Source of the DNA: a virus
Taxonomy: Duplodnaviria; Caudoviricetes
Virus record (IMG/VR): IMGVR_UViG_3300011560_000001
Location: 32,001-96,000 of that record
Length of the DNA: 64,000 bases
Strand: one strand, 5' to 3'
This document shows positions 9,367 to 36,853 of the stretch, in pieces; position 1 is the stretch's first letter; every line of letters begins with the position of its first letter. The position numbers were made by a program, and so were the translations under genes. Under the pieces are notes generated by a model. It was not told where the DNA came from, searched no databases, and saw nothing but the letters and a program-made list of their open reading frames with translations.

Positions 9367-9399
9367 TTCTATGCCGTTTATCGTTGCGAATAGAAAAAA

Positions 9400-18814: not shown

Positions 18815-21226
18815 GTGTCCAACACTGACTATCAGCTTTATTCGGAAAGCGTGCAGCGTCTAACGGACACCCTGATTATTAAAAGCGACATCACGGCAGA
18901 ACGGTTAAACCTCAAGGTTTCCGAAGTCTACCAGATGGCCGTCGGGGACGACCCACGCACGTGGTTATACTACATGAATCTCGCTGGCGAGTATCATCCT
19001 TGTCAGACAATGATGACCGTAAATTCCCTGGATACGCTCGAAGAGATCGAGTTCACCAAGGAAAACATGTTACGGCACCGCATGACGGCAAGGGAGTACG
19101 CGTATGGTGGAGATTATTTCAATCGTTTAATTGCGCGATACCCGGAACAACGTATGTTGATCTTGGGTATCCTTAACCCCATCGATATCGAGAAAGCAAT
19201 TGCGGCACGCAATCATGAGATTCTCTGGTACGATACACAAGAGGTTGAGTCACGCGAGGCCAATCTTATTCCGCGTTTACAGCAAGAAATCGACGATTAC
19301 TTCAGACGCTGGGAACATCCGGCATACGAGAGCGTCGATATGCTTCATTGGCCTGCGCTATACGCCATCCTATTCACACAAATACCTGAGATGATAAAAG
19401 GTATTCGTTGGGAAAACTGTCATACCCATTATGCCCATAGCTTCCATATCTGGAGTTATCTGGCAAGCCATCAAGGTCTCGATCGATTCAAGCGATACAT
19501 GACCGAATCCCAAATGCTCTGGTTCTATCGTAACATCGCTTACGTTGAAAGAAACATGGGCAGAACGGAAAACTACGATAAGCTCATTCAAAAGGTATTA
19601 ACCGATCGTGGGATTCCAATCGGTGCGTTCTCGATCAAACAAGACGCTTCCGGGATACCCCAGACGTTAAAACCCGCAGTTTACATGGAGCGTAAACCGC
19701 TTAACCTTCAAGAGATCGTCGGTAATGGCACGGTAAGACGTAAGGTCACCACCGTGATGCAACAACAGTTCCCTCTAGCGCGGGATAACGAAGCGGAGTA
19801 TTATACCGAGCTTAACCGCACGATAGAGAAGATGTCGATGCACGACAATAATACCTTAACAACCAAGGTATTGGAAAGTGAAGCGGAAGATCTTACCGAC
19901 AGTGAGTTATACCCGAAATACGATTTCTTGCTCAACGAATGGATCCATCTGAGTTCCATCGGTATGTATCAGTCACGGTTAACCACCACCAACCCGGTGA
20001 CGGGTGATACCATGACGATGTCGATGAAAGATGCATACAAGCTGTTCTTGTATTTGCTGAACTATTCGATGGGTATGCCGCTGATTGAAGTGCCTAAGAT
20101 CCATGCTAACCATGTCAGGGTGTTAACGCTACCAACATTCGATCATCTCCGCAGCATTACCGATCCTGCTATCATTCCCGATAAACTGATCTGGTGGTGT
20201 TTGGATAAGCAAGTAACATTGCGTCCGGTCGTCAGCACTGAAGAGTTTCTCAACGTCGTTACCGAGATCTATCAGGGCTGGCGTCGCCATCAATTCATGT
20301 ACCAGCTCCAAGAGCATTATCAAGCTCGAGGTATGGCTGAAGCAATCGTTGAAAACTTTTACGTGGATGTTGGTGTCGACTTCGGTATTGGGCAGCTTTA
20401 CAAGGAATGGTTCTTAGCGATGGATTGGGAGCTTGATGCAATCAGTCAAGAAGAGGCGGGAATTCTAGCTCTCGATATCTTCACAAAGGCTACCGGTCAA
20501 GATTTGGAAGACGTCACCAGTCTTAAGGATATTCAATACGGAATGCTGCAGCTGCTTAAGACATTGAGCAGTTACACCATCCATTTTATCCAGACAATCA
20601 ACAGCGATCCAATCAAGCCGCTAAACAAAATCGCCGTTCGTCTTGGTTCGAGTTTAGTAAGCGGTAGTGAAGAACTGTGGGAAGACTGGGCACAGGCAAA
20701 CGTTCATGATACGGATAACCAGGCTACGGAAGTTATCAAATTCGTACATGATAACAACCCGATGACGAACTGGCGCGAATCGGCGGTTGAAAGTTTGGAA
20801 GCACCTCCGAAACCAACCTGGTGTGACTGTAGCGGTTACGAGAATACCCAAACCGTTCGATTCAGTACGCAATATTGGGCGCAAGTCATCAGTGATCCTG
20901 TCTCGTTACGTTTCCGTAAAAACCCGCTCGATGGTTTGTGGCTTGCACCGTTCCCGGGTCGGGCACCACGCGACCTTCGTGAGCGTTTACTGTCGGAGTC
21001 GCTGCATGGGCTGACCATAAACCCGATCAAACCGTTCGAACAACGTTTCCGTAAACGTGATCTTCGAGGTCTTTGGATAGAACCAATCTACAAACAGGTG
21101 AATGGTCGTTTCAGGTCAGCGGTTCTAAGTGAGACGAATCATGTTGCGTATAAGCCTGTCAGTATGCGTCTATCGAATCCGCTCAATCGTTTGATTGTTA
21201 AACCTTTGCCTATCGAGGACGCTTAA
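18815..21226 (+). CDS. virion baseplate-region protein (phiKZ gp128-like) with C-terminal peptide repeats
   Basis: W.YYMNLAGEYH, HSFHIWSYLASH; GTG start after GGAGG; C-terminal RF..xxLxGLW repeats. Confidence 0.7.
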   Translation: MSNTDYQLYSESVQRLTDTLIIKSDITAERLNLKVSEVYQMAVGDDPRTWLYYMNLAGEYHPCQTMMTVNSLDTLEEIEFTKENMLRHRMTAREYAYGGDYFNRLIARYPEQRMLILGILNPIDIEKAIAARNHEILWYDTQEVESREANLIPRLQQEIDDYFRRWEHPAYESVDMLHWPALYAILFTQIPEMIKGIRWENCHTHYAHSFHIWSYLASHQGLDRFKRYMTESQMLWFYRNIAYVERNMGRTENYDKLIQKVLTDRGIPIGAFSIKQDASGIPQTLKPAVYMERKPLNLQEIVGNGTVRRKVTTVMQQQFPLARDNEAEYYTELNRTIEKMSMHDNNTLTTKVLESEAEDLTDSELYPKYDFLLNEWIHLSSIGMYQSRLTTTNPVTGDTMTMSMKDAYKLFLYLLNYSMGMPLIEVPKIHANHVRVLTLPTFDHLRSITDPAIIPDKLIWWCLDKQVTLRPVVSTEEFLNVVTEIYQGWRRHQFMYQLQEHYQARGMAEAIVENFYVDVGVDFGIGQLYKEWFLAMDWELDAISQEEAGILALDIFTKATGQDLEDVTSLKDIQYGMLQLLKTLSSYTIHFIQTINSDPIKPLNKIAVRLGSSLVSGSEELWEDWAQANVHDTDNQATEVIKFVHDNNPMTNWRESAVESLEAPPKPTWCDCSGYENTQTVRFSTQYWAQVISDPVSLRFRKNPLDGLWLAPFPGRAPRDLRERLLSESLHGLTINPIKPFEQRFRKRDLRGLWIEPIYKQVNGRFRSAVLSETNHVAYKPVSMRLSNPLNRLIVKPLPIEDA

Positions 21227-21285
21227 CGTGATAGTGCAGCAAATCGTAAAGTCTTTTTTAATTAATTCCTGGCGTGGAGGTCACC

Positions 21286-22221
21286 GTGAGTGATACGGTA
21301 ACAACTATTGACGACACCGAACTTTACCCGGTCGACGTCTCTTTACCCTCATCCGATCTCGTGTATGGTCTTATCAACCACGATAACCCACCTCAGAACG
21401 GAGAACATGTTCTAACCCCTGAATTATTGGTTTTAGGGACACCAACCACCAACCAAAGCGCCTACGAGCGCGATACCCAGATTACGGCAACGGCAACCGC
21501 TAAGCTTACCGAGTTAGACGATTATGAAGGTTCGACGACGCTGTATTACGATCGTATTAACATCGGTGCGTATCTACGTAACGTAGCACCTATTCTTATC
21601 GATGCGCCAGATGCCACCAAGATGCGTGATATCTGGCCTATCATCAAAGAACGTTTCGGTCTCGGCCTTACCGCAGAAGAAATTGTCAACGACGAACTTA
21701 ACTGGGATACCGTTAACGGACAATTGCTCCGTGTCGTATCTAATTGCCTGGCTTGGACGGGAAGTGTTCGTATCTTGATGAAATCGCGTGTACCGAATCT
21801 TGATGATATTATCGCGATCAAAGAGCTCGATGGTCTTAAGTTCTTCGGACAGGGCGTACGCGCTAGCGGTGAGATCTACAGTTACAGTCGTGATACTTCT
21901 GATTACGGTGAGTTGCTGGCTTCGCTGGTAACAGGTACGGTCATTAGCGATGTGGTGGTCGCCGATCTTCTGGCTGAAATGACCGCCAATCGTTGGGTAT
22001 TAGACGACAACATCGCACCGTATAACCTGTATAATGCTAAAGTGGCTTTCAACGGTGAGTTGGGTGGACGTATTCCAGCACGAGCAGGTTACCAATACGG
22101 TATCGAGATCAGTCTGGATGAAAACTACTGTACTGCTGTCGGCGGTCCATTGATTTTCTATTACAACGTCGACGGACATACCGCAAGCCTCCAGGGTCGT
22201 TCTCCAGAAGAACAAGGCTAA
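21286..22221 (+). CDS. gp131-like tail/fibre paralogue A
   Basis: Shared family motifs YYDRI, FGL.L...EIV.D, LAWTGSV, L..II....L.GL. Confidence 0.7.
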   Translation: MSDTVTTIDDTELYPVDVSLPSSDLVYGLINHDNPPQNGEHVLTPELLVLGTPTTNQSAYERDTQITATATAKLTELDDYEGSTTLYYDRINIGAYLRNVAPILIDAPDATKMRDIWPIIKERFGLGLTAEEIVNDELNWDTVNGQLLRVVSNCLAWTGSVRILMKSRVPNLDDIIAIKELDGLKFFGQGVRASGEIYSYSRDTSDYGELLASLVTGTVISDVVVADLLAEMTANRWVLDDNIAPYNLYNAKVAFNGELGGRIPARAGYQYGIEISLDENYCTAVGGPLIFYYNVDGHTASLQGRSPEEQG

Positions 22222-22231
22222 GGAATAAACA

Positions 22232-23083
22232 ATGAGTCAGAAATTGTTAAACAAAAGTCCTAAAGTACTGGTCGCCGAACTTATTCAGGCCGCCAATCCT
22301 GACTTCGACTTTAACTTCGATGCGCTTGAGATCACGGATGCTGCTGAAAACGGAAACCACGCGTATAAACGGAACACCCGCGCTAAGGTATCGCCTTCGG
22401 CAACAGTAACGCCAGCACAATACCGTGAAAGCAGCTACGTGTGGTACGATCGTATTCCTATCCAAGACTTCTTCTTGGGAATGGAACCGAAGCTCGCTAT
22501 CGATGCCGGGGTTAAAACAACGCACGATCTTATCCCTCTGATCCAATCGACGTACGGAATCGTTATCGATCGGGATAGCTGCGTCGATTCTCCGATTGTT
22601 CGAGGGAATGAATACCCATTCCCTCATGTCGTAGAATTGAAAACAACCGGATTGGCTTGGACGGGAAGTGTTACATTCTACCTCCTCGATAGCGCACGCG
22701 ATATTGCGGGGATGATGAAGACCACGGCGATGGCCGGTCTCAATTTCCCGTACTACACCGCAAATCGTATCCAAGCGTTGGTCTACAGTTACGCTATAGA
22801 CTGCACAGCAATCCGTTCCGATCTTGCCGGGTTAAAGGTTGGTGGTAACCTAAGCGCAATGGTTAGCTTATTCAACAACGTTGCACCAACCCCATGGGTT
22901 TATAACGGCCGTGAAGACGAAAACAACCTTTACGGGGCTACCGTACTCGCAACCGGTAAAACAACAGAACTTATCGCACAGGGTTATCCTGTTAACCCCG
23001 CGTTCGCTAACGCTGTTATCGTTACGCTTAGCCAAGATTACTGCACGAACTACGGCGGTATCCTGTTGATGCAATATAACTGA
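22232..23083 (+). CDS. gp131-like tail/fibre paralogue B
   Basis: RNT, WYDRI, YGIVI, LAWTGSV, IAGMMKTTAMAGLNF. Confidence 0.7.
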   Translation: MSQKLLNKSPKVLVAELIQAANPDFDFNFDALEITDAAENGNHAYKRNTRAKVSPSATVTPAQYRESSYVWYDRIPIQDFFLGMEPKLAIDAGVKTTHDLIPLIQSTYGIVIDRDSCVDSPIVRGNEYPFPHVVELKTTGLAWTGSVTFYLLDSARDIAGMMKTTAMAGLNFPYYTANRIQALVYSYAIDCTAIRSDLAGLKVGGNLSAMVSLFNNVAPTPWVYNGREDENNLYGATVLATGKTTELIAQGYPVNPAFANAVIVTLSQDYCTNYGGILLMQYN

Positions 23084-23099
23084 TTAAATAGGAAAAGAC

Positions 23100-23984
23100 A
23101 TGGCTTCTACACAAATCCGTGCTACCGATCGTATCGTCCGTACGATTATCGGCGGTCAAGTACAAACGAACCTTACGCTCGGTCTTCCTCATGCGTGGGA
23201 AGAACACAGCACCTTGAACGAAAAGCTTCAGATTCAATCAAAGATTTACCCCGACGGTAATCCTGCTGTACGTTACTTCTGTATCGGCAACCAAGGTCAC
23301 GAATTCATCCGCAACGCTAACGGCATCCCTTCCTCGATGCCGATCGCTCACGAAGCAAGCGATCTTTCACCATGGAAAATCAAACCTTTCGTGATGCGTG
23401 AAGTTGGTAACGATTTGACCACGGACGAACGTGCTAGATTTGGGTTACGTCGTATTGAGACGCTGGAAAACGGTAAAAAATACATCTGTTATTACGGTCG
23501 TCGCATCGATTTCGATAACGTTGTCCGCTCCATGCGATATACCAAGTACATCGATGGTGTTGCTCAGACTATCGAATGGCATCCGACCGACAAGAACCTC
23601 AACCCACCCCGACCGGATATTCCAACAACAGGAATTCTGGTGGCGACCGGGGAGTATTACGATTATAGCTGTAAAGTCTCTTTGGTTTGGACACCATGGG
23701 ATATTAACGAATACCTCAATGTAGCTAAACTCACCGAGGGTGGTGAAGAGTACGCGGTTATTTCTGAAATTGGGATGGTCTCCGCCGGTGACAAAATCGT
23801 TCGTGCTGATGATGGTCAAGGTTCTGCCTTCGACATGAACGAAATCGTCGGTGCGCAGGTTACCGACCTGATTTCGACTTACCACAACCTATTTACCACC
23901 AACGATACGCTGACGTTGAAATACGACCTTGGTGCGTTGGAAGCTCGTAAGGCAGGCCCGACGGGCGCAGAAATCCTACCGTAA
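23100..23984 (+). CDS. virion structural protein (baseplate region, phiKZ gp130-like)
   Basis: 294 aa; YFCIGNQGH, PFVMRE..NDL, YAVISEIG; context. Confidence 0.6.
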   Translation: MASTQIRATDRIVRTIIGGQVQTNLTLGLPHAWEEHSTLNEKLQIQSKIYPDGNPAVRYFCIGNQGHEFIRNANGIPSSMPIAHEASDLSPWKIKPFVMREVGNDLTTDERARFGLRRIETLENGKKYICYYGRRIDFDNVVRSMRYTKYIDGVAQTIEWHPTDKNLNPPRPDIPTTGILVATGEYYDYSCKVSLVWTPWDINEYLNVAKLTEGGEEYAVISEIGMVSAGDKIVRADDGQGSAFDMNEIVGAQVTDLISTYHNLFTTNDTLTLKYDLGALEARKAGPTGAEILP

Positions 23985-23999
23985 CCTAAGGGGTGTTAA

Positions 24000-24905
24000 A
24001 TGGAGTACAGTGAAATCCTAGGGTTAGAATCGAAAGAAATCCTCTTTCGGCTGATTCGAAAGCATAGCGATTTCGATGCTCGAGGCGTAACGCTGGATAA
24101 ACTGGTTATCGGTGAGGCTTCTGAAAGCACAGGGTACAAGCGTAACAGCAAGTTAACCGTGCATCCCCAACCGGGTTCGGGGCTGGTGAACTCTGTCGAC
24201 ATCTATTATAACCGCGTCGATCTTGGTAAACTGGGTATTTGGCCTGGTGGACAGCACCGCTGGCCCATCGAGATCGAAACCTTAGATACACTAACCAAGG
24301 TCTCTGAGATATTACCTGTCTTAGCATCAACGTACGGTATCCTTCTCAATAAAACCGAGATCGTCGACGCGGATCTGGATAAATCCAAATCACCGATACA
24401 TGTTGCGATAACACCTAAACCTGGTAACCAAGTATGGGTTGGTCAATTACTTGTTGAGTTAACTTCAGGACATAACGACCTCAACAACCTCATTCGCAAC
24501 AATATGTTGGCTGGGTTGAATTATCTCATCGATCGAGATAGTGATAAACTCCCGGGCGCTATTGTTTCGTACAACTGGTTCATGTCTGATGATGTTCTAG
24601 CGTCACTTACTGATGGGTATACGTTAACCTCAGGTGATATGCAATCAGAAGCACTAATCGCAGAAATGAACATGCTGCAATTGGGTCTCTCTGAAGAGAT
24701 CGATGGTCTTACGGCCAACGATCGCTGGGTATTGTCGGCAACGCCTGGACCGCTCAACTTGCAGAATGCGAGAGTAATAGCCGATCCAGAGCATTTCAAA
24801 ACACTACCATTTGGTGTACGTACAGACGCTCGTAAAGCTGTTGTACTTCAACTCAGTGTGATGAATACGCTCATCGACGGTTATCTAACGTTATACGTGG
24901 CATAA
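24000..24905 (+). CDS. gp131-like tail/fibre paralogue C
   Basis: RNS, YYNRVDL, YGILL..TEIVD, VWVGQL, LNNLIRNNMLAGLNY. Confidence 0.7.
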   Translation: MEYSEILGLESKEILFRLIRKHSDFDARGVTLDKLVIGEASESTGYKRNSKLTVHPQPGSGLVNSVDIYYNRVDLGKLGIWPGGQHRWPIEIETLDTLTKVSEILPVLASTYGILLNKTEIVDADLDKSKSPIHVAITPKPGNQVWVGQLLVELTSGHNDLNNLIRNNMLAGLNYLIDRDSDKLPGAIVSYNWFMSDDVLASLTDGYTLTSGDMQSEALIAEMNMLQLGLSEEIDGLTANDRWVLSATPGPLNLQNARVIADPEHFKTLPFGVRTDARKAVVLQLSVMNTLIDGYLTLYVA

Positions 24906-24914
24906 CAGCATATT

Positions 24915-24946
24915 CCCTCCTCCTTCCCTGATGGGTTGGAGGAGGG
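24915..24946. terminator. repeated hairpin element copy 5 (convergent junction)
   Basis: CCCTCCTCC-TT-CCC-TGAT-GGG-TT-GGAGGAGGG flanked by GCATA...TATG. Confidence 0.75.
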
Positions 24947-24956
24947 TTATGTTTGT

Positions 24957-26237
24957 TTATTTGTTTTTCTGACTGGAATCGATCAATTCGAGCTTATGTA
25001 CTGTCTGCAACGTCGCATGCGTTTCCAACCAGACCTGGTGAAGATAAGGCGTATCGTTAAGCCGCTTAACGCGTGTATGTTTGTACAATGTGTTTTCAAA
25101 CAACATGTTCTTACGAAGTCCCCAGCGTGAGTGAAGTACCCATAACGGTTTTTCATAGGTCTGCACGTAAGCCGGTAACTCACCGAGATCGGCTCGAATC
25201 AGTCCTTCCGGTTTCTTACCTAAGAAATATTGTCCTGGTACACCACTTCGCGGTAAAGGTTCTTGTGTAACCTGAATCGATGTTGCTTTGATATACACCC
25301 AGAAACTGCAGGGATGCGTCACCCATGCTTTTAAAGTCTTATCAGACAGTAAACGATTGGCAACAATATCGGACTGCGGGTCTTCTTCGTTCAACAGAAT
25401 ACCGAGAGACGTTAAATCAAGGTATTTGCGGGAGCGGAAGTATCTTTCATACAGAAACATGTTTCTGCAGTTTATTTTTGCCGTCGTATCACTAACAATC
25501 GTGTAGCAATCGTCAAGAAGGTGTAGATATCCCCCGAACACCAGCGCAACGGTTTCATCTTCGGCGACCTTGCGTGGTAACCGCAAGTACATCTCGTCCT
25601 TATACGGCAAGAGCTTCGTGGAATCAGCAATCATCTCTTCCGTGATAGCGTGGATTTCCAAACTCCCGATACGGCTAAAATCAATCATGCCGATATCGTT
25701 TTCTTGGCTACGCTGTGCTGTCTCGAACCCACCCTGGATATAGACACCAACGTCTTTACCGTAGACGTGAGGATGAACATAACCGCCTACAGTGAACAAG
25801 CAGTGTTTGCCGATATTTTCGTAATTCGTATTCGCCTTCGTCAACAGTATATCAGTACGTTCCGACTCAGGGATCGCGTTGCTCGGATGATAGCCGCTAT
25901 TACCGACTTTAGGGAGAAAGCCTACCGTAATAGCATCATGGCAATAAAGCTTGTGGGTTTTAATCGACAGCTCGCCGGGCTGTCCTCGAAGGTTGGTATG
26001 CGCATCCGATTTCGCTTTCAACCACGCATTGAGCGTGTCATTGCTGTTTTGAAGCTCGGATTGAAACGCGTACAGATCAATAACTTGTTGCTGGTCAGCA
26101 TAGCTTTCATGGACCTGGATCTTGAGTTTTTGATACGTTGAGAACAACGTACTCAGGACACTTTCACCCGCCTCAAGTGCTGTCCAGGCCGTGCCAGAAC
26201 CTACGGGTAATCCGTAAGTTTTTACCAATGTATACAT
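24957..26237 (-). CDS. probable virion structural protein
   Basis: 426 aa; CLFTVGGYVH and LVFGGYLHL; located within the tail module. Confidence 0.6.
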   Translation of the reverse strand: MYTLVKTYGLPVGSGTAWTALEAGESVLSTLFSTYQKLKIQVHESYADQQQVIDLYAFQSELQNSNDTLNAWLKAKSDAHTNLRGQPGELSIKTHKLYCHDAITVGFLPKVGNSGYHPSNAIPESERTDILLTKANTNYENIGKHCLFTVGGYVHPHVYGKDVGVYIQGGFETAQRSQENDIGMIDFSRIGSLEIHAITEEMIADSTKLLPYKDEMYLRLPRKVAEDETVALVFGGYLHLLDDCYTIVSDTTAKINCRNMFLYERYFRSRKYLDLTSLGILLNEEDPQSDIVANRLLSDKTLKAWVTHPCSFWVYIKATSIQVTQEPLPRSGVPGQYFLGKKPEGLIRADLGELPAYVQTYEKPLWVLHSRWGLRKNMLFENTLYKHTRVKRLNDTPYLHQVWLETHATLQTVHKLELIDSSQKNK

Positions 26238-26341
26238 GGGAGAGGCCCCCTTATTTTATAGTTACAGTAATATTTTACCGCTGTTAACACAGGATACCCC
26301 AGGGTATCCCACACTTACTAACAACTTGTAAAGGGCGCATC

Positions 26342-28495
26342 ATGACAGATGAAATTAAACGCCTTCCGTATAACCCGCAGGGGAATTTGGATGGCGCATG
26401 GGTTCCAGAAGAACTCGTCACTGTCCGTCCTTCCACGGGGACCGGATTTAACTTTCTCGTTCCTAAATACGCACCCTATTTTCGTAATGGGTTAAGGATC
26501 TACAATCCTGAAACAAACGCGTATCTGGAAGAAGGCGTTGACTTTTTATGCACTCACCCCTTCCGTGCCATGGCTGCGCTGACCGGCCTGGAATTATACG
26601 GTTCCATCATGCTGTTGGACACCGCATTCAGTGGACAGTTGCAACTGAACTACTATTCACTGGGGGGTGAGTTTACACTTGATCAACAACAAATTCTTAA
26701 CGTTTTAGCCAACAACCTTTATGACCCTCGCGTTACGTTCTGGGAAAAGGTTGCTGACGTTCCTTCCGTATTCCCACCAATCAACCACCAACATAATGTC
26801 GAAACCGACACGATGACGTGGGACGATGTGGTGGCTGCAATCGAGTCATTGAAAGGACCGCTTGAAGAAGGGTTCAATAAAGCAATGACTGCGTTAGTGC
26901 AGCACGAGAATCGACGTGATAATCCCCATGGCGTCACGAAAGCCCAAGTTGGGTTGGGGAATGTACAGAACTTCACAACAGCGACCGAGAGCGATCTGGA
27001 AACTGTCGGTGAAAATCTGTACATGACGTTGGCGATGACACGTAAGATGATCGCTAACCTTAGCGGCGATAGTGCCGCTGCGCACATCAGTAACCGCAAC
27101 AACCCACACAAGGTGACCAAAGCCCAGGTGGGACTCGGGGACGTTGAGAACTACGGTGTAGCCGATGATAATACAACCGTTACCGGTACAGCCACTAATC
27201 TGTACACGACTCCAGCGGGTGTACGAGCAGCAATCAAGGCAATCACGGACGGCTTAAGTACACGCATCGATCACGTCAACGCTACGTTAACAACCCATAC
27301 CGAGGATAATAGCAACCCTCATGCTGTTACGAAAGCACAGGTAGGGCTGGGGGACGTACAGAACTACGGTGTAGCGTCTAATGGGGAAGCTGGTGCGGGT
27401 GTTGCTAACAACAAATACATGACGCCTGCGACCACAGCCGCCGCTATCGCAGCGCTAATCACCCCAACCGTAACCGAACATATCGGTAGCACCAATAACC
27501 CACATGGGGTGACAAAAGCCCAAGTCGGTCTGGGAAGCGTGCAGAACTTCGGGGTTGCTACTACCCAAGAAGCGATCGACGGTCAGGTTAACAACAAGTA
27601 CATGACACCAATACTTGTTCGTTACGCGATCGAGCAAATGGCTGGTCAAGGGTTCAGTAGTCACATCGCAAACACCGAGAACCCGCACAGGGTGACGAAA
27701 ACCCAGGTTGGGTTGGGGAGTGTTGAGAACTACCCTGTTGCTTCTGATGTGGAAGCACAAACCGGTGTAGCGACCAACCGCTATATGACACCGGCTGCGA
27801 CAAAAGCAGCGATCATCGCTTTAGCAGGTGATGGTTTTGCGGCACACGTTGTCGATAAGAGTAACCCGCATGAAGTAACCAAGGTACAAGTGGGGTTAGG
27901 GAACGTACAGGACTTTGCTGTCGCCACCGACGTGCAAGCTGCCGACAGGACTAACCAGACAGCGTACATGACACCGTACTCGACTTACAAGTCGATTGCA
28001 GCGTTCGCCGCGTTAGCCGATCATACACACACAGCCGAACAGGTCGGCGCGCTCCCTATCAATGGGGGTAAGTTAACCGGACCAATCGATCTTTCAGCAA
28101 CGTCTATCACGGGTACCGGACTCGGTATCGATGGTGCTAATGGTTCAATCAACGTCAATAAGTTGACCGTCAACCAGCTTCTGGAAGCTTACGGCGGTAT
28201 TGAATCCAGCGATACGATCAAAATCCTTAACGATGATGAGACCCCGGCGAACTTCCTTGCTGACGGCGATCTCGAAGGGATCAAATGGGCTAATATCAAT
28301 AGCCAGGAACCCGGAGAGAACGATGAAGGCGTGACAATGCAGAAGATCGGTAAGCTTAGCGATTACCTTAAGAACGACTATTTAACCAGCTTGAAGACGA
28401 ACGCGGCGTTCCGTGACGTTTTCCAAGCGTTACTTAAGGAATTCCTTGCCAACTTCAACGCAGTCATCAAGGCAAAAGACTTCGAAACGTTATAA
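26342..28495 (+). CDS. tail fibre protein with six ~60-aa H-x5-NPH.VTKAQVGLG repeats
   Basis: Repeats are visible in the translation; the N-terminal domain is paralogous to 32183-34231. Confidence 0.8.
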   Translation: MTDEIKRLPYNPQGNLDGAWVPEELVTVRPSTGTGFNFLVPKYAPYFRNGLRIYNPETNAYLEEGVDFLCTHPFRAMAALTGLELYGSIMLLDTAFSGQLQLNYYSLGGEFTLDQQQILNVLANNLYDPRVTFWEKVADVPSVFPPINHQHNVETDTMTWDDVVAAIESLKGPLEEGFNKAMTALVQHENRRDNPHGVTKAQVGLGNVQNFTTATESDLETVGENLYMTLAMTRKMIANLSGDSAAAHISNRNNPHKVTKAQVGLGDVENYGVADDNTTVTGTATNLYTTPAGVRAAIKAITDGLSTRIDHVNATLTTHTEDNSNPHAVTKAQVGLGDVQNYGVASNGEAGAGVANNKYMTPATTAAAIAALITPTVTEHIGSTNNPHGVTKAQVGLGSVQNFGVATTQEAIDGQVNNKYMTPILVRYAIEQMAGQGFSSHIANTENPHRVTKTQVGLGSVENYPVASDVEAQTGVATNRYMTPAATKAAIIALAGDGFAAHVVDKSNPHEVTKVQVGLGNVQDFAVATDVQAADRTNQTAYMTPYSTYKSIAAFAALADHTHTAEQVGALPINGGKLTGPIDLSATSITGTGLGIDGANGSINVNKLTVNQLLEAYGGIESSDTIKILNDDETPANFLADGDLEGIKWANINSQEPGENDEGVTMQKIGKLSDYLKNDYLTSLKTNAAFRDVFQALLKEFLANFNAVIKAKDFETL

Positions 28496-28501
28496 CGGAT
28501 G

Positions 28502-28537
28502 GGTGGGTTCTGCCCACCTTTCCATCTTTTTATTTTT
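28502..28537 (+). terminator. possible intrinsic terminator or attenuator
   Basis: GGTGGG-TTCTG-CCCACC followed by T-rich sequence. Confidence 0.45.
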
Positions 28538-28553
28538 TCGATAGGACGTGAAA

Positions 28554-29063
28554 ATGGGCACAAAAATGAGTGAGTTGGGTGCTCGCATGACGACATGGTA
28601 CACAAGGAAGGATAACCCCAACCAAGTCACCGCAGCGCAAATCGACGCACCCGATAAAAACACAATCGATACGAAAATCGACAAAAAGCTACCTAAGGGG
28701 ATACTCCCCGTAGCGTATTTCGGTGATTGCACTGATATTCGTAACGATCATATCAGCAACGTTACCGCTAGCGGTACGGTAATCTCGTATCCTGAAATAC
28801 CTGTCATGATTGCGGGTACCGACTATATTCTGGCGAAAGGAACGCTAGACATCAAAAATCTTACTTCCGACTGGGCGAACAAGACCGGTTATCTTTTCAT
28901 TCGTCAGAAAGACGGATCGATCGATTGGATCTGGCAGAGTAGTGCTGGGGTCGACACGTCAACAGCGATTCGCGTCGGGCAGGTGAGCTGTAACGCATCA
29001 GGAATCACTTCAGTGGTATTCAACAAAGTCTTCATCCTCGGCCAAAAACGTTACATGGGGTAA
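28554..29063 (+). CDS. small tail-fibre-associated protein (paralogue of the N- and C-termini of 29566-32169)
   Basis: N-terminal DNPNQVTAAQI motif; C-terminal beta domain similar to that of the 867-aa protein. Confidence 0.7.
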   Translation: MGTKMSELGARMTTWYTRKDNPNQVTAAQIDAPDKNTIDTKIDKKLPKGILPVAYFGDCTDIRNDHISNVTASGTVISYPEIPVMIAGTDYILAKGTLDIKNLTSDWANKTGYLFIRQKDGSIDWIWQSSAGVDTSTAIRVGQVSCNASGITSVVFNKVFILGQKRYMG

Positions 29064-29067
29064 CCAC

Positions 29068-29553
29068 ATGAAGCTATCAACATTGCTTTCTGAATGGGGA
29101 GCGTATCTCACCCAAAAGAACCCTCACGAGGTAACGCCAACACAAACAAATGTTTACGTTAAGATCGAAGTGGCTCCTAAACTTGCATCGCTTGTTACTC
29201 AGCGTTACCTTCCGTTTCTTTTCTTCAGTCGAAATAAAACGCTTCCGGCAGCCAGTTACAGCAACGGGCAGATCAGTATTGGTCAAGGTACAGCGGAATA
29301 CAACACGATGGTAGGGACAGTACCAGCAACGACTTTGGATGTGTCTGGTATCAGTGAGTCTGTGGGCTGGATCTATCTTGCCGTAACCGATCGTGGTTTT
29401 GTTTACACGCTGAATGATAGCGATAGCAGCTACAAAAACACCATGCGTATCGGTACCTGGAACAAAGTCCAGGGTACATCACATCTTGCTGCAACACGTA
29501 AGGTGGCCACCATCGAGATTGACGATGGTCAGCTTCCCGACTCGCCTATTTAA
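29068..29553 (+). CDS. small tail-fibre-associated protein
   Basis: N-terminal KNPHEVTPTQ motif; ...GWIYL...MRIGT. Confidence 0.7.
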   Translation: MKLSTLLSEWGAYLTQKNPHEVTPTQTNVYVKIEVAPKLASLVTQRYLPFLFFSRNKTLPAASYSNGQISIGQGTAEYNTMVGTVPATTLDVSGISESVGWIYLAVTDRGFVYTLNDSDSSYKNTMRIGTWNKVQGTSHLAATRKVATIEIDDGQLPDSPI

Positions 29554-29565
29554 TCGAGGTGAATA

Positions 29566-32169
29566 ATGGCAATGAAAAAGTTCAGCGAACTGGTGAGTAG
29601 CGTTAATACGCGTATCGCTAGTCGCGACAACCCAACGGGACTAAAAGCGAGTGATCTTGGGGCCTACAGTACCGCTGAGTTCAACACCGAGATGGAAAAA
29701 TACATCGATATCAGCGTAACCGATATCGAACAGGTTGGGGACCAAAGTTATTTTCCTCTGGCAATTGAAGGCTCCGCCGATGGTGCTATCTCCCTAAACG
29801 ACAAATACCGTCGTTACGGCGTATGTCGTGAATCGGACGGTACCATCGTGTTATTGCGTTCAGCAACGAACAGCGTAAAGAAAGGGGTTTACTACGTTAT
29901 CTGTAAAACAGATCAAAACGGGCAAATCACCGAAGTTATCCCAACCAGTCGTCGTTATGAGCCCGCGACGCTCGATCGTATTCCTACGGTGATATACTGC
30001 CACCAGAACGGTATCATGTTAGGTCAAGCTGCTTTTGAAGACGGTAGCAGCCCTAAAATGTTTATCGCATTGACAGACGGAACGTTTGATGCATCCAAAC
30101 ACGTCGCCATGTATCTCGATGGTAGTCTTGCCAACTTTGTTGATACGTCACCGAATGTCTGCTGTTGGGAAATTAACGGTAAAATCTACATCGCTATTGC
30201 TGGCGCTAACAGTTATAAACTCTACTTAAATGTTTATACCGTAACTAAATCTTCCATCGGTCCCAGCGGTGGCAGCGTAGCGGCTACACAGCTTACGAAT
30301 ATTAGCGGTAGAACGATAGAAGGAACGGCGATAAGCAACAGCGCCGAGATGATTGTCTGCAACCGCATAACTGCGAACGATTTCCCTTCTGACGGGATCG
30401 GTCAAATCGTCTGGCGTGCTCAGATTCGTCTGCTCGCAGCAACCAAAGGCACTAAAGCACGCATTCTGATTGCTTCGGCGTGGTGGACGAACAACCGTAA
30501 CAACCGAGCTAAAAATGGGTTGCATCAGTTTTATCTGGATTTTGAAACCACCAACAACAGTTACAGCATGAACCCGGGCGCTGGACAATCGACTTACACG
30601 TCAACCAGCAGCGGTATTGACTGGATAGGACCTTCCAACACAACGGAGGGGACAAGCGCATATAACGATGGTTTCTGGCAATGGGGTTCGGGTAACGGTA
30701 CCGGGAATATCGAAATCAACGAACGTGGTCAGGTAGCCCTTATCCAAAACGACAACTTATCCGCCCCCCAAGCGAGATCGTACACCATCAAAGGTTTCTC
30801 TGGAAACGTGTTCGACGAACTCGCCAAACTCGGCCCGACCGGTGGAAGACAGTACGATTCAAACTGGAAAAGCGTCGGGGATCGCGTCGTTGGTGCGCTC
30901 GCGTCCCATGGTTACCTGGGTTTCTTTTCTAAAAACAAGGTTTTTGTTAACTCGCGTACGGCTGGCGGACAAGGTAATTTTGAGGCTCGTCTAGTGACCT
31001 ATGACTGGAACCTCAATTACCATTATCAGGGCGAGGGTATTAATGTTTACGGTTTTCCGCCTTCCAACAATGTGGTGGTTAGAACAGGTCAAACAGCGTT
31101 ACCTTTCCTAACCGTGCATTTAAGCGATGACAATACGGTGGTTAGCGGGTCTTATTTAACCGATGCGGTCCTAACAAGCAAAATCGGTTACGACGCAACC
31201 AAACTTGCACCATCCGGTGAAGCCATCAGCATAACCGCAGCGAATCTGCAGGCAGGCGGTCAGCTTGTGTGGAACGCATATACAGGATCTAAGTTATCAG
31301 GGGTAAGTCAATGGCGACATGCGTTAGCAGTGCCTCCAGATGGTACAAACGCGCCCTGTATCCTGTTTGTTGCTGGCTGTAATACCAGCACACGCGTACA
31401 TGGACGAATCGCTGCAGAGGTTACCGTATCCGCGCGTAAAGGTTCGATTACGGTGACGGGCGTAACCAAATTGCTGGGTTATGTCGAAGAACCCGATTCA
31501 ACAAATATCGGTAGTCAGGATGCTGCCTGGGGTGTATTAGCTTACAAGAAGGTGAGTGATGGATGGCTTGTTGCGGGACATGTTCCGTACTCCCGTCAGT
31601 CTGCAGGGAACCAGAACACATATCAGTTCCGAGCTGGGCGACAAAACGATGGGAACTGGACAACCATCGCATTTGAAGGTATGTATGCTTACCTACAGAC
31701 AAGCGGCTATCGCTGGAACGTACATCCGGTGTGGGGAATCGGTTATGTTGATACCGCCGTCTCTACGGTGATGGGTAATGGCGGGCAGGTCTTTAACGCT
31801 GTCGGTAATTCCGTTGCGGAATATACAGCCCTCGCTGTTAAAAATCGTTATATGGTTTCTACGGTCGTTGCCGCTTCCGGCTACGATATCTACGTCAACG
31901 AAGATATCACCTGCTTGTTTGCCGGTAAAGTCATGACCCTACCTAAAGGCCATTATAACCTAAAAGACTATAATAGCTCACCAGGTAATAAAACATGGTA
32001 CGTTTCCGTTGTTCCTAACGGTAACCAGTTAGAGCTGGAATTAACCATCCACAAGCAAGAGGATGATAAAGGACAGCGCGTTAATATCGGAACGATTACA
32101 ACCAGCGATACCCAGATCTCTGTCATCAATCTCAATAAGACAACCAAATTAGGTACAGTCACGTTATAA
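29566..32169 (+). CDS. large tail-fibre or receptor-binding protein
   Basis: 867 aa, beta-rich G/S/T/N composition; N-terminal RDNPTGLKASDLGA. Confidence 0.7.
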   Translation: MAMKKFSELVSSVNTRIASRDNPTGLKASDLGAYSTAEFNTEMEKYIDISVTDIEQVGDQSYFPLAIEGSADGAISLNDKYRRYGVCRESDGTIVLLRSATNSVKKGVYYVICKTDQNGQITEVIPTSRRYEPATLDRIPTVIYCHQNGIMLGQAAFEDGSSPKMFIALTDGTFDASKHVAMYLDGSLANFVDTSPNVCCWEINGKIYIAIAGANSYKLYLNVYTVTKSSIGPSGGSVAATQLTNISGRTIEGTAISNSAEMIVCNRITANDFPSDGIGQIVWRAQIRLLAATKGTKARILIASAWWTNNRNNRAKNGLHQFYLDFETTNNSYSMNPGAGQSTYTSTSSGIDWIGPSNTTEGTSAYNDGFWQWGSGNGTGNIEINERGQVALIQNDNLSAPQARSYTIKGFSGNVFDELAKLGPTGGRQYDSNWKSVGDRVVGALASHGYLGFFSKNKVFVNSRTAGGQGNFEARLVTYDWNLNYHYQGEGINVYGFPPSNNVVVRTGQTALPFLTVHLSDDNTVVSGSYLTDAVLTSKIGYDATKLAPSGEAISITAANLQAGGQLVWNAYTGSKLSGVSQWRHALAVPPDGTNAPCILFVAGCNTSTRVHGRIAAEVTVSARKGSITVTGVTKLLGYVEEPDSTNIGSQDAAWGVLAYKKVSDGWLVAGHVPYSRQSAGNQNTYQFRAGRQNDGNWTTIAFEGMYAYLQTSGYRWNVHPVWGIGYVDTAVSTVMGNGGQVFNAVGNSVAEYTALAVKNRYMVSTVVAASGYDIYVNEDITCLFAGKVMTLPKGHYNLKDYNSSPGNKTWYVSVVPNGNQLELELTIHKQEDDKGQRVNIGTITTSDTQISVINLNKTTKLGTVTL

Positions 32170-32182
32170 GGACCTCCAGGTT

Positions 32183-34231
32183 ATGTCAACACCAATTACC
32201 CTGAAGTACCCCGAGGACTGGACCGGCACGCTCGATAGCAACCACATCGTTGGTGAAGAGCATACCGTTCCACGAACCGAGAATAAATGTTACGCCCTCG
32301 ATGGCGGACCGTTCTTCACCGAAAGTCTGGTTATCACCGAAAAGCTTACCGGTAAGACACTGGTGCGAGGTGTGGATTATAAGCCCATCTTCTTGTATCA
32401 GGACGCTACGCTTTACGCTGGTAAAGAAATCTGTGCAGCCATCGCCATCATCAACGATGATATCGAGGGTACATTAGTTAACGACTATCGTATCATCGGT
32501 GGTGTTTACGTAAGTCTTATTGACGCGTTATATCAGGCTATCGAAGAACTCAAACTTGACGATCGTCCGATCAACTGGGATGACATCAAGAACAAACCGG
32601 AACTTTATCCGCCTGAACCACACATCCACCACGTTAGCGCGATTTACGGTACCGAACATCTTTGCTTAGCGATCTATTCGTTAAAAGCCGCAATACTTAT
32701 CGGTGATGCTGCGTCCGATAACCGTCTCTGGGCGGCAATCGATCAGTTACGCAAAGACATGCAAGCAGCGGATAAAGATCTAACCGATTTGCATTACGCG
32801 CATGCTAACCGTACCGATAACCCGCACGAAGTAACAAAAGCCCAAGTCGGACTAGGTAATGTACAGAACTATCCTACCGCCAACAAGGCGGAGGCAGAAG
32901 CCGGTACCGCACCAGACCGTTACATGACAGCACAAACGGTTGGATGGGCGATTGCTAAACTGGCGGGCGATCTGGTTAATGCTCACGCTAACCGTCGAGA
33001 TAACCCGCATAGCGTCACCAAAGCGCAGGTTAACCTCGGCAACGTTGATAACTTCCCGACAGCGTCGGACTCTGAAGCAAAAGCGGGTACAGCGAACAGC
33101 CGTTTCATGACGCCGCTACGCACCGTTGCAGCGATTGAACAGTTCGCATTGATTCCACTTAACGCGCATAAAACCGATTATAACAACCCACACAGAGTAA
33201 CCAAGGCACAGGTTGGGTTAGGGAATGTGCAAGACTATCCGATGGCTTCTGAAGAAGAAGCGCGTGCTGGTGTTGCAGCTAACCGATTAATGGCACCGAA
33301 CACAACCAAAGCGTCCATTGAGACCTTCGCGTTAGTTCCGCTTAATGCGCACATCGCCGACAAGAACAACCCACACCAAGTGTCTAAGGCACAAGTAGGG
33401 TTGGGAAGCGTTGAGAACTATCCAACCGCTAACCAAGCTGAAGCGCAAGGTGGTTCTGCAACTAACCGTTACATGACACCACAGTCTACCAACTGGGCAA
33501 TTCAGAAATTAGCGGGCGATCTGGTTAATGCTCACGCTAACCGTCGAGATAACCCTCACGCCGTTAACAAAGCCCAGGTGGGCTTAGGGAATGTTCAGAA
33601 CTACGGTATCGCTTCCGATGCGCAAGCGCAGCAAGATGTTAACACTGTGTATTCTACACCACGTAACGCCCGTCTCGCTGCAACACACATCATCGATACA
33701 CGCTTGTTCTGGGGTTCTTACAGCGGAAACAAACTGGTCTTCGTTGATGGTAATGGTGGTACGCGTTTAGGTAAACATGTCATCATCACGGAGAATGGGG
33801 GCGGTGAGATCACACGCTTCTATTGGGGGAACTCTGCCGGTGGTGGTAGTGCGCTGTACTTCAACAGCAACATCGATGTTCCTAACGCGTACATCCGTTC
33901 AGATGAGCGTAGTAAACACGACATCCGTTATCTGAAAGACCATCCGGAATCTTTCAGTGATCGTTTACGTGAAATGGCGTATACCGGACTTGCCCGTTTC
34001 CGTCACAACTACGATCCTGATGTCGAGAAGATCGGTGTTATCGCACAGCGTGTTCAAGAACAGTTCCCGGAAATGATCAACGTATCAGATAAAGGGCTGT
34101 TAAGTCTTGACACCATGGTGTATAGCGGGGTTCTGTTAGGTGGTTGGTATGAACACGACCAACAACTTCGTGCTCTGCGTGCAATGGTTGAAGAAATTGC
34201 ACATCACGTGAAAGGAACCAAGGGTATGTAA
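32183..34231 (+). CDS. tail fibre protein with five NPH repeats and a C-terminal intramolecular chaperone (peptidase S74-like)
   Basis: Repeats; RSDERSKHDI...IGVIAQRVQEQFPE..L + coiled coil. Confidence 0.85.
   Translation: MSTPITLKYPEDWTGTLDSNHIVGEEHTVPRTENKCYALDGGPFFTESLVITEKLTGKTLVRGVDYKPIFLYQDATLYAGKEICAAIAIINDDIEGTLVNDYRIIGGVYVSLIDALYQAIEELKLDDRPINWDDIKNKPELYPPEPHIHHVSAIYGTEHLCLAIYSLKAAILIGDAASDNRLWAAIDQLRKDMQAADKDLTDLHYAHANRTDNPHEVTKAQVGLGNVQNYPTANKAEAEAGTAPDRYMTAQTVGWAIAKLAGDLVNAHANRRDNPHSVTKAQVNLGNVDNFPTASDSEAKAGTANSRFMTPLRTVAAIEQFALIPLNAHKTDYNNPHRVTKAQVGLGNVQDYPMASEEEARAGVAANRLMAPNTTKASIETFALVPLNAHIADKNNPHQVSKAQVGLGSVENYPTANQAEAQGGSATNRYMTPQSTNWAIQKLAGDLVNAHANRRDNPHAVNKAQVGLGNVQNYGIASDAQAQQDVNTVYSTPRNARLAATHIIDTRLFWGSYSGNKLVFVDGNGGTRLGKHVIITENGGGEITRFYWGNSAGGGSALYFNSNIDVPNAYIRSDERSKHDIRYLKDHPESFSDRLREMAYTGLARFRHNYDPDVEKIGVIAQRVQEQFPEMINVSDKGLLSLDTMVYSGVLLGGWYEHDQQLRALRAMVEEIAHHVKGTKGM
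32963..33555 (+). repeat. exact 44-bp direct repeat (32963-33006 and 33512-33555)
   Basis: GCGGGCGATCTGGTTAATGCTCACGCTAACCGTCGAGATAACCC occurs twice, 549 bp apart. Confidence 0.9.
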
Positions 34232-34357
34232 TTCAGCGTTCTAGAACGCGTTGTAACGCTTCGAAAAGTTTAATCTAGGGTTTGCCTGGGTTAAATCGTT
34301 TATCGCGTTCTAGACCCTTCCTGTTCCTCTAAATCGTTATTTAAACGAGGAGTTCTA

Positions 34358-34993
34358 ATGGCTAAGATTACTGAGAAAGATTTCACGTGCGAATTTATCA
34401 TTCGCGATAAAACCAGCATCGAAGCAGGTTACGTCGACGATCCCGATGATTCGGGTGGAATCACGAACCACGGCATTACGAAAACACTCGCCGATCAATA
34501 CAAAACCACGCTGAAAACGAAATTCGGCTGGGACGGTAACATGCGTAACCTTACCACGGAAATGGCGTTCTTTATCTACAAGACCCACTTCTGGGATAAG
34601 ATGAAACTTGACGAAGTCATGAAACGTTCTGTGTTCTTAGCTGACCGTCTCTTTGACTTGGGTATCAATGCTGGCAAAACCGTTCCGGTTAAGAACCTCC
34701 AACGTTATCTGAACGTCATGAACAACCGACAAACGTACTGGAAAAATATCAACGCCGACGGTTTGATGGGACCTGCGACGTTAAGCGCGCTCGACGCTTA
34801 CATCGCTAAGCGTGGTGCAACCGGTAAGGATTATCTCATCGATGCGATGCTGGATATGCAGAGCACCTATTACATCGAATTAGCGGAACGTCGTGAGAAA
34901 GATGAGAAATTCATCTACGGTTGGCAGGCACGCAAACGTCGTGAACGTAAGCGTTATGAAGCGATCATCTTGAACGGGTTCAGTGTTGAGTAA
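34358..34993 (+). CDS. endolysin, glycoside hydrolase family 108 with C-terminal peptidoglycan-binding domain
   Basis: EAGYVDDPDDSGGITNHGIT, FDLGINAG, ADGLMGPATL, EKFIYGW. Confidence 0.9.
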   Translation: MAKITEKDFTCEFIIRDKTSIEAGYVDDPDDSGGITNHGITKTLADQYKTTLKTKFGWDGNMRNLTTEMAFFIYKTHFWDKMKLDEVMKRSVFLADRLFDLGINAGKTVPVKNLQRYLNVMNNRQTYWKNINADGLMGPATLSALDAYIAKRGATGKDYLIDAMLDMQSTYYIELAERREKDEKFIYGWQARKRRERKRYEAIILNGFSVE

Positions 34994-35056
34994 AACACCA
35001 TCATAAACCGTCCTAAAACGCTCCAGAACGAACGGAACGCATAAAGACGTATAAGA

Positions 35057-35089
35057 CCCCTCCTCAGCCCGATAAGGGCTGAGGAGGGG
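35057..35089. terminator. repeated hairpin element copy 6 (convergent junction)
   Basis: CCCCTCCTCAGCCC-GATAA-GGGCTGAGGAGGGG. Confidence 0.75.
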
Positions 35090-35288
35090 CTTAACATGTG
35101 TTTGTGTTTATTCAGGTTGGTCTGGGTCCCTGGCCGCTTGAGGAGATCCACAACCCTTTCAACACCACGCTTCATACGAAGCGTTCAATGAGAAAGATAA
35201 GCGTGCAACCACGCAGATTGTTACAACCAAATTGTAGAAGAGCAATAGCCGAGCTGTACAAAACCCATACTATTGCTCATTGCTTACA

Positions 35289-35819
35289 TTAGCCGCCGAT
35301 GGAGATGGTCGGTTTCTCGAAGCCTTCGGCAACGTTATTCGCCAGAACAGTAGCCAAGTCATCGCCTACCTGGATGTACTGCATCTTAACGACCAGCTGA
35401 CCGGTGTACACCAAACCACCCTCTTTTGCCTGGATGGTGATGGATTCCGGTTTGGACGATACGTCCATATCGCTAACAACGATATCATCCGCAGCAATAC
35501 CCAGTTTGAATGTGGTTGCGATGCTTGCGATAACATCGCCGGTGTTCACGGAAGTCCCGCTGGCGGTAAAGGTTACCTGATCCTGAACATCAGCGAATAC
35601 CGTGGTCAGGTCCAGACGGTTATAGAAGAAATCCTGTTGGCCAGACAGCGTCGGGGAATCTTCTACAGCAGACAGATGGATTTTGGTATTCTTTTCGTGT
35701 TCGGAAGATGTTTCAACAGCACCGAACTGCAGTTCGCCTTCTTCTAAAGTACGGGTTGCTTTAGTGTTAATCAGGTCCAACAGCAACGCTTTACTTTTCT
35801 TGCTAAAATCAAGAGCCAT
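35289..35819 (-). CDS. short gp131-like paralogue D (N-domain plus terminal peptide only); candidate fibre shaft subunit
   Basis: LLLDLIN, KNT, FYNRLDL, FKLGI..DDIV, LVYTGQL; ends LATVLANNVAEGFEKPTISIGG; optimal codon bias. Confidence 0.75.
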   Translation of the reverse strand: MALDFSKKSKALLLDLINTKATRTLEEGELQFGAVETSSEHEKNTKIHLSAVEDSPTLSGQQDFFYNRLDLTTVFADVQDQVTFTASGTSVNTGDVIASIATTFKLGIAADDIVVSDMDVSSKPESITIQAKEGGLVYTGQLVVKMQYIQVGDDLATVLANNVAEGFEKPTISIGG

Positions 35820-35959
35820 GTTTTATCCTCGTTTTTTCAGATGATCGAACAGGAGATTCGGAGTCGTTCTCCATAATATTCACATTTAATATAAAATATA
35901 TTGATTTCTGTAAATACTTACATCTTTTGAGAGTAATGTAACAACCATCGAGGAAGAAA

Positions 35960-36853
35960 ATGACAGCTCAAGTATCACTTACTTTAAAAACACCTTGGCA
36001 ACTTATCGTTGATGAGATCAACACACTCAACGCCGACACTGGTGCCAACTTCAAACCCACCGACCTTAAATACGTTCTTAAATCCAAAAGCGATTCTGCT
36101 CCAGATGCAACTTTAACGCTTAGCCCTGGTGAAGGTACTCCTTACTTCAATGACCGCGATGTTACCTACCATCGTCTGGATCTGGCTAAGTGGTTCCAGA
36201 AGATCGCCGTACGTGTTAACGTTAATAAAAACACCACCATCGGTGATGTGGTTGACCTTGTAGCTCAACGCTACGGTATGATCACACCTTCCGGTGAGAA
36301 GTTCCTGGATAAAACGAAAGACATCAAAGCCGATACGTTAAATACGCCGGTTACCTTTGAGCAGTCGGGTATCCAGACGATCACTTTGGAAGCCAAAGAA
36401 GATTCGCTGGCTTGGTATGGTTCCGTTGAAGTTAAAGTTTATAACACCACGCTGGATCTGGCTAACATCATCAAGGTTACCAACCTGGGTAACTTAACCT
36501 ACGTTGATGAAGGCGATGGCACCAAGACCTCAGCGCGTCTGTTAACCTATCCGTTAGACTTCAGTACCTACACCACAGGCCTACAGGCGATCATCAGTGA
36601 TGAAACCAAGATCGATGAAACCCTGGCAGGTAACCTGACCACGCTGATCAAAGAGCAGACGGGTGTAAGTGATGATATCATCAATGAACTGAAAACCAAT
36701 CTGCAAACAGCTACCTTTGTCTATAACGGTGCTACCACCGGGTCTACCGACAAGGGCGTTAACGCTACGTACAGCAATGTGCTAGTGGTGTCGTTAACCG
36801 ACGGTACCCACACCTACGGTAAAGCCGTATTCGGTTATAACGTTTCCGAATAA
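35960..36853 (+). CDS. gp131-like paralogue E
   Basis: YHRLDL, YGM, SLAWYGSV, LANIIKVTNLGNLTY, then a C-terminal domain ending FVYNG...FGYN. Confidence 0.75.
   Translation: MTAQVSLTLKTPWQLIVDEINTLNADTGANFKPTDLKYVLKSKSDSAPDATLTLSPGEGTPYFNDRDVTYHRLDLAKWFQKIAVRVNVNKNTTIGDVVDLVAQRYGMITPSGEKFLDKTKDIKADTLNTPVTFEQSGIQTITLEAKEDSLAWYGSVEVKVYNTTLDLANIIKVTNLGNLTYVDEGDGTKTSARLLTYPLDFSTYTTGLQAIISDETKIDETLAGNLTTLIKEQTGVSDDIINELKTNLQTATFVYNGATTGSTDKGVNATYSNVLVVSLTDGTHTYGKAVFGYNVSE

Follow-up and report, generated by a model that had tools for sequence, protein, structure and literature searches.

A candidate docking peptide shared by DUF7941 fibre proteins, a baseplate wedge protein and a possible extension of the capsid gene in a Goslar-like jumbo phage

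A short linear peptide recurs in three classes of structural proteins encoded by a 64,000-nucleotide stretch of a tailed phage (Duplodnaviria; Caudoviricetes; positions 32,001 to 96,000 of IMG/VR record IMGVR_UViG_3300011560_000001; hereafter the window): in five paralogous fibre proteins of the family DUF7941 (A to E), in the C-terminal tail of a baseplate wedge protein, and in 28 open codons directly behind the TGA stop of the gene for the major capsid protein (MCP). The best explanation of this distribution, held at slightly better than even odds and derived from sequence comparison, is that the region encodes part of the fibre system of a Goslar-like chimallivirus, whose DUF7941 subunits would join through a donor peptide that is also present on anchors in the wedge and the capsid. 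That at least one of these two putative anchors is real appears probable. The window corresponds to a region of Escherichia phage vB_EcoM_Goslar, with a nucleotide identity of 97% at the capsid gene region and 94% at the paralogue cluster; its relatives in IMG/VR are all near-identical. The features concerned are as follows.

7014..9236, plus strand: MCP, orthologue of Goslar gp41 (PHROG 3231 major head protein, E 6.5e-165; matches the PDB chains of the Goslar MCP); TGA at 9234-9236, followed by A
9237..9323, plus strand: in-frame tail behind the TGA, 28 codons (9237-9320) and a second TGA; NVADGF at 9276-9293
9333..9368, plus strand: G+C-rich hairpin past the second stop, read by eye, likely transcript end
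15878-18787, minus strand: orthologue of Goslar gp36 (Goslar annotation)
18815..21226, plus strand: gp35-like baseplate wedge protein of the phiKZ gp128 family (PHROG 3222, E 6e-209, residues 25-672 only)
20897..21226, plus strand: C-terminal tail of the gp35-like protein with peptide repeats (L.GL cores at 20927-20938, 21002-21013 and 21062-21073, then two degenerate repeats)
21274..22221, plus strand: paralogue A, DUF7941, Goslar gp34 (PF25613, E 5e-63); linker peptide 21799-21843
22232..23083, plus strand: paralogue B, DUF7941, Goslar gp33 (PF25613, E 8e-47); linker peptide 22703-22747
23100..23984, plus strand: DUF7208 protein between B and C, Goslar gp32, homologue of phiKZ gp139, baseplate spoke filament (PF23838, E 2e-95)
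24000..24905, plus strand: paralogue C, DUF7941, Goslar gp31 (PF25613, E 4e-53); linker peptide 24480-24524
35289..35819, minus strand: paralogue D, short DUF7941 protein, Goslar gp23, covering Pfam positions 4-174 of 276; N-domain and C-terminal docking peptide 35319-35357
35960..36853, plus strand: paralogue E, DUF7941, Goslar gp22 (PF25613, E 1e-50); linker peptide 36455-36502, with N at the G position

Recurrence of the peptide in the window

The original prediction described one spacing pattern (phi-xx-[phi/R]-phi-xxxx-phi-x-G-phi) in four settings, namely the tail behind the MCP gene, the C-terminus of D, the linkers between the two domains of A, B, C and E, and the tandem repeats that end the gp35-like protein, and all the peptides it quoted are present at these places. 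The expression itself is loose; it matches 15 times in the 56 proteins of the window, as opposed to 5.0 +/- 2.1 times in shuffled sequences, but literally misses both the MCP tail and D because these have an A at one hydrophobic position. Nor are the sites in A, B, C, D and E independent: they form one aligned column block within a single Pfam family and therefore count as one event, so that the sites in the MCP and gp35 tails needed tests of their own.

The linkers of 118 aligned members of the family have the consensus D-L-x-x-[VIL]-[LIV]-x4-L-[DN]-G-[LF]-x-Y-P (L 81%, G 75%, Y 68%, P 80%). Among 19 D-type homologues, with identities down to 43%, no part of the protein is as well conserved as the C-terminal peptide; in D, nine residues separate NVAEGF (35319-35336, minus strand) from the stop. 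When a hidden Markov model (HMM) of the D peptide was run over all six frames of the window (2,851 segments), it recovered D with an E-value of 2e-17 and the MCP tail with 1.1e-4, followed by the next segment at 1.4; the MCP tail is the only match outside the paralogues. An HMM of the family linker, built without sequence from the window, placed the MCP tail second among the same segments (per-sequence p 1.2e-6), between the linkers of C (best) and E, and also found those of D, A and B. Together with the enrichment in wedge tails reported below, both searches bear out the prediction that capsid tail and baseplate tail have a peptide in common, which is statistically real. The proposed division into a head subtype (NVA[DE]GF) and a baseplate subtype (LxGL) holds inside this phage, but other chimalliviruses carry the L-D-G-L type on their capsid protein. 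The peptide profile offers a practical key for annotation, which finds components of the fibre network that are missed by domain searches.

DUF7941 proteins as chain-forming subunits

All five paralogues are members of DUF7941 (PF25613), with scores of 92-213 bits at a cut-off of 27, and their profile has PHIKZ127 as its sole match among all PDB chains (E 7e-18, with matches up to E 1 considered). They are thus gp127-like and not gp131-like, as they had been labelled; in the phiKZ atlas, gp131-135 constitute a separate fibre family. The AlphaFold 2 (AF2) model of D, computed without a partner, has a predicted local distance difference test (pLDDT) score of 91, and a Foldseek search with this model returned a single match, the N-domain of phiKZ gp127 (9xqd_0; E 2.6e-8, TM-score 0.71), and no pilin or immunoglobulin (Ig)-like fold in the PDB for the N-domain. 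An exhaustive profile search collected 2,394 representative clusters of DUF7941 proteins, among which natural concatemers (P0190, P0166 and P0177) repeat the succession of N-domain and peptide two or three times. Tandem units of N-domain and peptide are also seen in P0204, and such proteins often have short repeated ends of the type [LF]-[DE]-[DGS]-G, which resemble a motif behind the TGA of the phiKZ MCP gene.

A DUF7941 protein would consist of an N-terminal acceptor domain and a short donor peptide, which would dock on the N-domain of the next subunit by beta-strand augmentation and so give rise to flexible head-to-tail filaments. D, which comprises only the N-domain and the peptide, would be the bulk subunit, and the members with extra C-terminal domains would be interspersed or carry binding modules. 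That the paralogues chain by a linker on the N-domain of a neighbour is very probable and already known, having been published for their orthologues. Basu et al. (bioRxiv 10.64898/2026.04.21.720040, April 2026; Sci Adv November 2026, PMC13742148) named ten DUF7941 proteins of Goslar, including gp31, gp33 and gp34. Their AlphaFold 3 models of gp22 and gp23 place the disordered linker of one protomer on the next N-domain in a continuous intermolecular beta-sheet, and gp22 formed filaments in vitro as seen by negative stain (PMC13742148). Mass spectrometry of Goslar virions gave about 2,140 copies of gp23, the highest number among the unmodelled proteins, and about 580 of gp22 (PMC13742148).

These results agree with the original prediction that the N-domain accepts the peptide of a neighbour and that D is the abundant unit, but contradict its statement that no description of such a system was known. 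They also contradict the predicted capping role in the case of E: its orthologue polymerises alone, so the two-domain members (A, B, C and E, predicted to be capping tips or adhesins) are not simply caps. Goslar gp22, gp23, gp31, gp33 and gp34, the orthologues of E, D, C, B and A, have the same domain plan and proposed chaining, with gp22 and gp23 at high copy number; the published model differs from the explanation favoured here in that the chains are anchored at about six outer-baseplate sites, a location of the fibre cloud that was proposed on the basis of phiKZ gp127 at the end of the gp139 band (PMC13742148). The paper (PMC13742148) makes no mention of the peptide motif, the gp35 tail repeats or a longer MCP. 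The extension of the system to capsid and wedge is unpublished as far as the literature was searched, and is statistically well founded at the level of sequence.

In chaperone-usher pili, a donor strand of one subunit completes the sheet of the next and thereby forms non-covalent chains. The comparison with donor-strand complementation made in the original prediction holds insofar as a strand of one subunit would extend the sheet of the next, which makes it an analogy of mechanism and not of membership. It does not extend to the incomplete Ig-like fold of pilins, given that the N-domain of D folds confidently alone and lacks a pilin-like match; moreover, the system lacks chaperone and usher, and its donor lies C-terminal to the acceptor.

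The occurrence of a single short motif in three classes of structural proteins could also point to a tag for sorting or for an assembly chaperone, read by a common partner other than the DUF7941 N-domain. This is very unlikely, because the N-domain is the only partner proposed from structure prediction, the concatemers alternate it with the peptide, and no candidate for another receptor was found.

Within the Goslar group, the N-domain of D is hypervariable (51-58% identity between 35289-35819 of the window and L028:10001-10543 and L015:3001-3534); its neighbours, the genes for gp26, endolysin and E, show 87-97% identity, and D itself keeps its C-terminal peptide. Such variability would fit diversifying selection or cassette exchange acting on the bulk subunit of the fibres.

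The tail behind the capsid gene

The MCP gene presents, at the level of sequence, the arrangement expected of a readthrough gene: TGA followed by A, 28 open codons, a second stop and a hairpin. The hairpin was not called in a scan for consensus terminators; its position downstream of the tail would place the tail on the mRNA. In the predicted readthrough product, the tryptic peptide across the junction would be free of K and R for about 35 residues. Ten of the 56 genes in the window end in TGA, and every tail behind a stop is behind TGA. The Goslar MCP, as represented by PDB chains, already includes the C-terminal arm known from phiKZ, where it forms a helix bundle at the centre of the hexamer and contacts the outer protein gp244 at the pentons. 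The tail would therefore start at the capsomer centre, presumably pointing outward, and the extension of 28 residues would display one D-type peptide there. Since it would be made only on readthrough of the TGA, the peptide would appear on no more than a small part of the 1,615 capsid subunits. The probability that this capsid anchor is real is put just short of even. A DNA-level 3' cassette shared by D and the MCP gene is ruled out: the likeness of the tail to the 3' end of D is confined to the codons of the motif, which differ in their third positions.

Minor coat forms of this kind have precedents in Qbeta A1, a UGA readthrough product of the coat gene, and T7 gp10B, which results from a frameshift at the end of gene 10. 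In both, as putatively here, a minority of the coat subunits carries a C-terminal extension by virtue of a leaky signal at the end of the gene; unlike these, the extension in the window has just 28 residues and would be a docking peptide rather than a folded domain. Capsid-gene readthrough in jumbo phages was not reported in the literature searched.

Seven relatives in the Goslar group keep the frame, the length and both TGA stops of the tail, and changes within the motif are conservative (D to E twice and I to V in the most diverged close relative). A tail is also present in the diverged lineage L011 (MCP 68% identical), where TGA is followed by 20 in-frame codons with the motif (p 4e-5 and 1e-4), and in Burkholderia phage FLC9, which is independent of the Goslar group and has TGA-A and a tail with the motif (p 3.6e-5); the annotated MCP C-termini of the window and FLC9, used as controls, gave p 0.05-0.1. 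The extension thus appears to be kept as protein in L011 and FLC9, but two sister lineages are without it. In SA002, pEa_SNUABM_37, LucasX and Proteus phage 10, the motif stands at the ordinary C-terminus of the MCP, 17-30 residues past the Goslar end (p 5e-6 to 9e-5). The RAY MCP has a weak motif score (p 0.011), and seven other phages as well as phiKZ lack the motif.

The type of peptide appears to vary in parallel in D and the MCP tail. Where the Goslar group has [DN]-N-V-A, the D peptides of the sister lineages have G-[DN]-G-[VI]-A; the Goslar group shows N-V-A in D as well as behind its MCP gene, and G-D-G is seen in D of the sister lineages, in the MCP tail of L011 and at the end of the wedge protein P0041. 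The latter belongs to L025, whose MCP is tail-less but whose wedge tail ends in this D-like peptide, albeit with a weak D-profile score; in L024/L026, neither a capsid tail nor a D-like end of the wedge tail was found. D was paired with the MCP by contig walking in L024/L026 and L025, and the pairing for L011, with a contig of only 11.7 kb, is inferred from relatedness only.

The most serious alternative, which is nevertheless unlikely, holds that only the DUF7941 linkers work, that the capsid tail is left over from an ancestral C-terminal extension and no longer translated, or is an element of the 3' untranslated region, and that the gp35 repeats are unrelated look-alikes. It would agree with the lack of a longer MCP in the published work on Goslar virions, with the absence of the tail in some relatives, and with the 3' part of the tail, which contains a small inverted repeat and has high conservation at the DNA level. 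Openness alone also means little, because 14 of the 56 genes in the window are open for at least 28 codons in frame past their stop. A neutral remnant, however, should be unrecognisable at the divergence of L011, where the motif persists although six of the eight residues conserved with the window tail use different codons, which is hard to reconcile with an untranslated relic. The recurrence of TGA and motif in the unrelated FLC9 and the six-frame profile match (E 1e-4) likewise speak against a remnant.

Tails of another sequence follow the MCP gene in phiKZ (L031:8510-8593) and PS119XW (L037:1216-1302), where TGA precedes an in-frame peptide of 26-27 residues with a repeated R-Y-L-E-[ND]-G. 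The two peptides are identical in 19 of 27 residues, with seven conserved residues encoded by different codons, and surpass the last 20 residues of the MCP itself in conservation. In RP12, the MCP gene has TGA-A and a short tail containing D-G-F.

The wedge tail and the anchoring of fibres

The orthologue of the gp35-like protein is an upper wedge protein in the cryo-electron microscopy (cryo-EM) structure of Goslar (bioRxiv 10.64898/2026.04.21.720040). The last 110 residues of the window protein contain three strict matches to the pattern, and L.GL occurs three times in this tail when 0.046 occurrences are expected (P 1.6e-5); no tandem repeat was found at the DNA level. Across 120 wedge proteins of the family, L[DN]G[LF] is found 97 times in 16.3 k tail residues versus once in 76.8 k core residues, and all 47 occurrences of the longer form with [YF]-P are in tails. 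This family-wide enrichment of about 450-fold is a further point against the view that the gp35 repeats are mere look-alikes. The number of peptide copies in the wedge tail ranges from 0 to at least 9, with five in P0041 and P0042.

A direct connection between wedge tail and DUF7941 is provided by the metagenomic protein P0054 (1310 amino acids), which combines a wedge core, four peptides at an exact period of 21 residues and a DUF7941 N-domain, with about 370 residues beyond these. AF2 modelling of the relevant stretch gives the N-domain a pLDDT of 91-98; one peptide reaches 86 and forms beta-bridges, and the remaining tail stays at 40-64; as a prediction, the model supports docking of the peptide on the N-domain. 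The order of the genes, with DUF7941 following the wedge gene, is conserved from phiKZ to Goslar. In phiKZ, gp127 and gp126 belong to the outer baseplate (PDB 9XQD; PMC13250141); gp127, the only solved relative, is encoded directly after the wedge gene, as in the window, but the phiKZ linker is degenerate, gp126 is without peptide, gp128 is without repeats, and the family has three members only.

On this explanation, two fixed parts of the virion would have acquired the same donor peptide as a starting point for chains; at the baseplate, the anchors would be provided by the disordered C-terminal tail of gp35 with its 3-5 copies. One wedge protein per wedge, as in phiKZ, and 3-5 copies each would amount to about 18-30 sites per baseplate. 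Like its counterpart on the capsid, the wedge-tail anchor is a candidate whose probability is put just short of even.

Alternatively, the gp35 repeats might bind the five gp32 (DUF7208) dimers of a baseplate spoke as a ruler or strap, and not DUF7941 domains, an explanation that appears quite unlikely. The five repeats of the window protein, P0041 and P0042 would equal the five gp32 dimers per spoke, gp35 touches the first gp32 dimer just as phiKZ gp128 touches gp139 dimer A, and the gp32 gene sits among the same genes. phiKZ, where gp128 has no repeats despite the presence of five gp139 dimers, speaks against this reading, as does the variable number of repeats in the family; moreover, the core of the repeat is the core of the DUF7941 linker, and P0054 fuses such a tail to a DUF7941 N-domain.

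Several results weigh against a fibre system with anchors on wedge and capsid. The changes in the MCP tail among close relatives comprise four synonymous and seven non-synonymous ones, which are too few, so that the close relatives do not demonstrate constraint. L010/L025 (MCP 72% identical) and L024/L026 possess D-type genes, but their MCP genes stop at TAA and have no tail, which makes the tail dispensable; the apparent co-variation of peptide type between D and the MCP tail is suggestive only. The repeats of the window gp35 are not significant with the 19-position linker profile and match only its L.GL core. phiKZ has DUF7941 proteins but carries no such peptide on gp128 or behind its MCP. 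Finally, published cryo-EM and mass spectrometry, in which annotated proteins were searched, locate DUF7941 at the peripheral baseplate, with no mention of DUF7941 proteins bound to the capsid or of an MCP extended by readthrough (PMC13742148).

A more far-reaching version of the anchored fibre system, which is tentative and rather less probable than either anchor, regards the linear peptide as a universal plug that would join DUF7941 subunits, sockets in the wedge tail and the capsid surface; in Goslar-like phages and FLC9, programmed readthrough of the TGA would ration the capsid copy, so that heads, too, would carry host-sensing fibres. If this were true, the tails of other sequence in phiKZ and PS119XW would suggest that capsid-gene readthrough is widespread in the family. 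The published model distributes about 2,700 fibre subunits over six sites and so implies filaments about 3 micrometres long. With tens of additional sockets on the tails of wedge and capsid proteins, the fibres would instead be shorter and cover the entire particle in a denser coat. A readthrough isoform of the capsid protein would also constitute a new example of recoding among large double-stranded DNA phages and offer a natural display site on the Goslar capsid.

Among the minor observations, the longest open reading frame (ORF) of the gp35-like gene begins with TTG at 18746 and overlaps the end of the divergent gp36-like gene; the start used here (18815) matches the ATG annotated in Goslar. 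An ORF of 155 codons (35280-35747, plus strand) lies antisense to D, and an antisense frame is also open opposite the MCP gene (7011-9311, minus strand); most likely, these ORFs are by-products of strong codon bias and not genes. Two proteins of the tail-fibre type (26342-28495, Goslar gp29; 32183-34231, gp25) contain a repeat of about 60 residues, present in five to six copies, which matches many tail-fibre PHROGs, and gp25 has a C-terminal chaperone domain of the Peptidase_S74 type according to the Goslar annotation.

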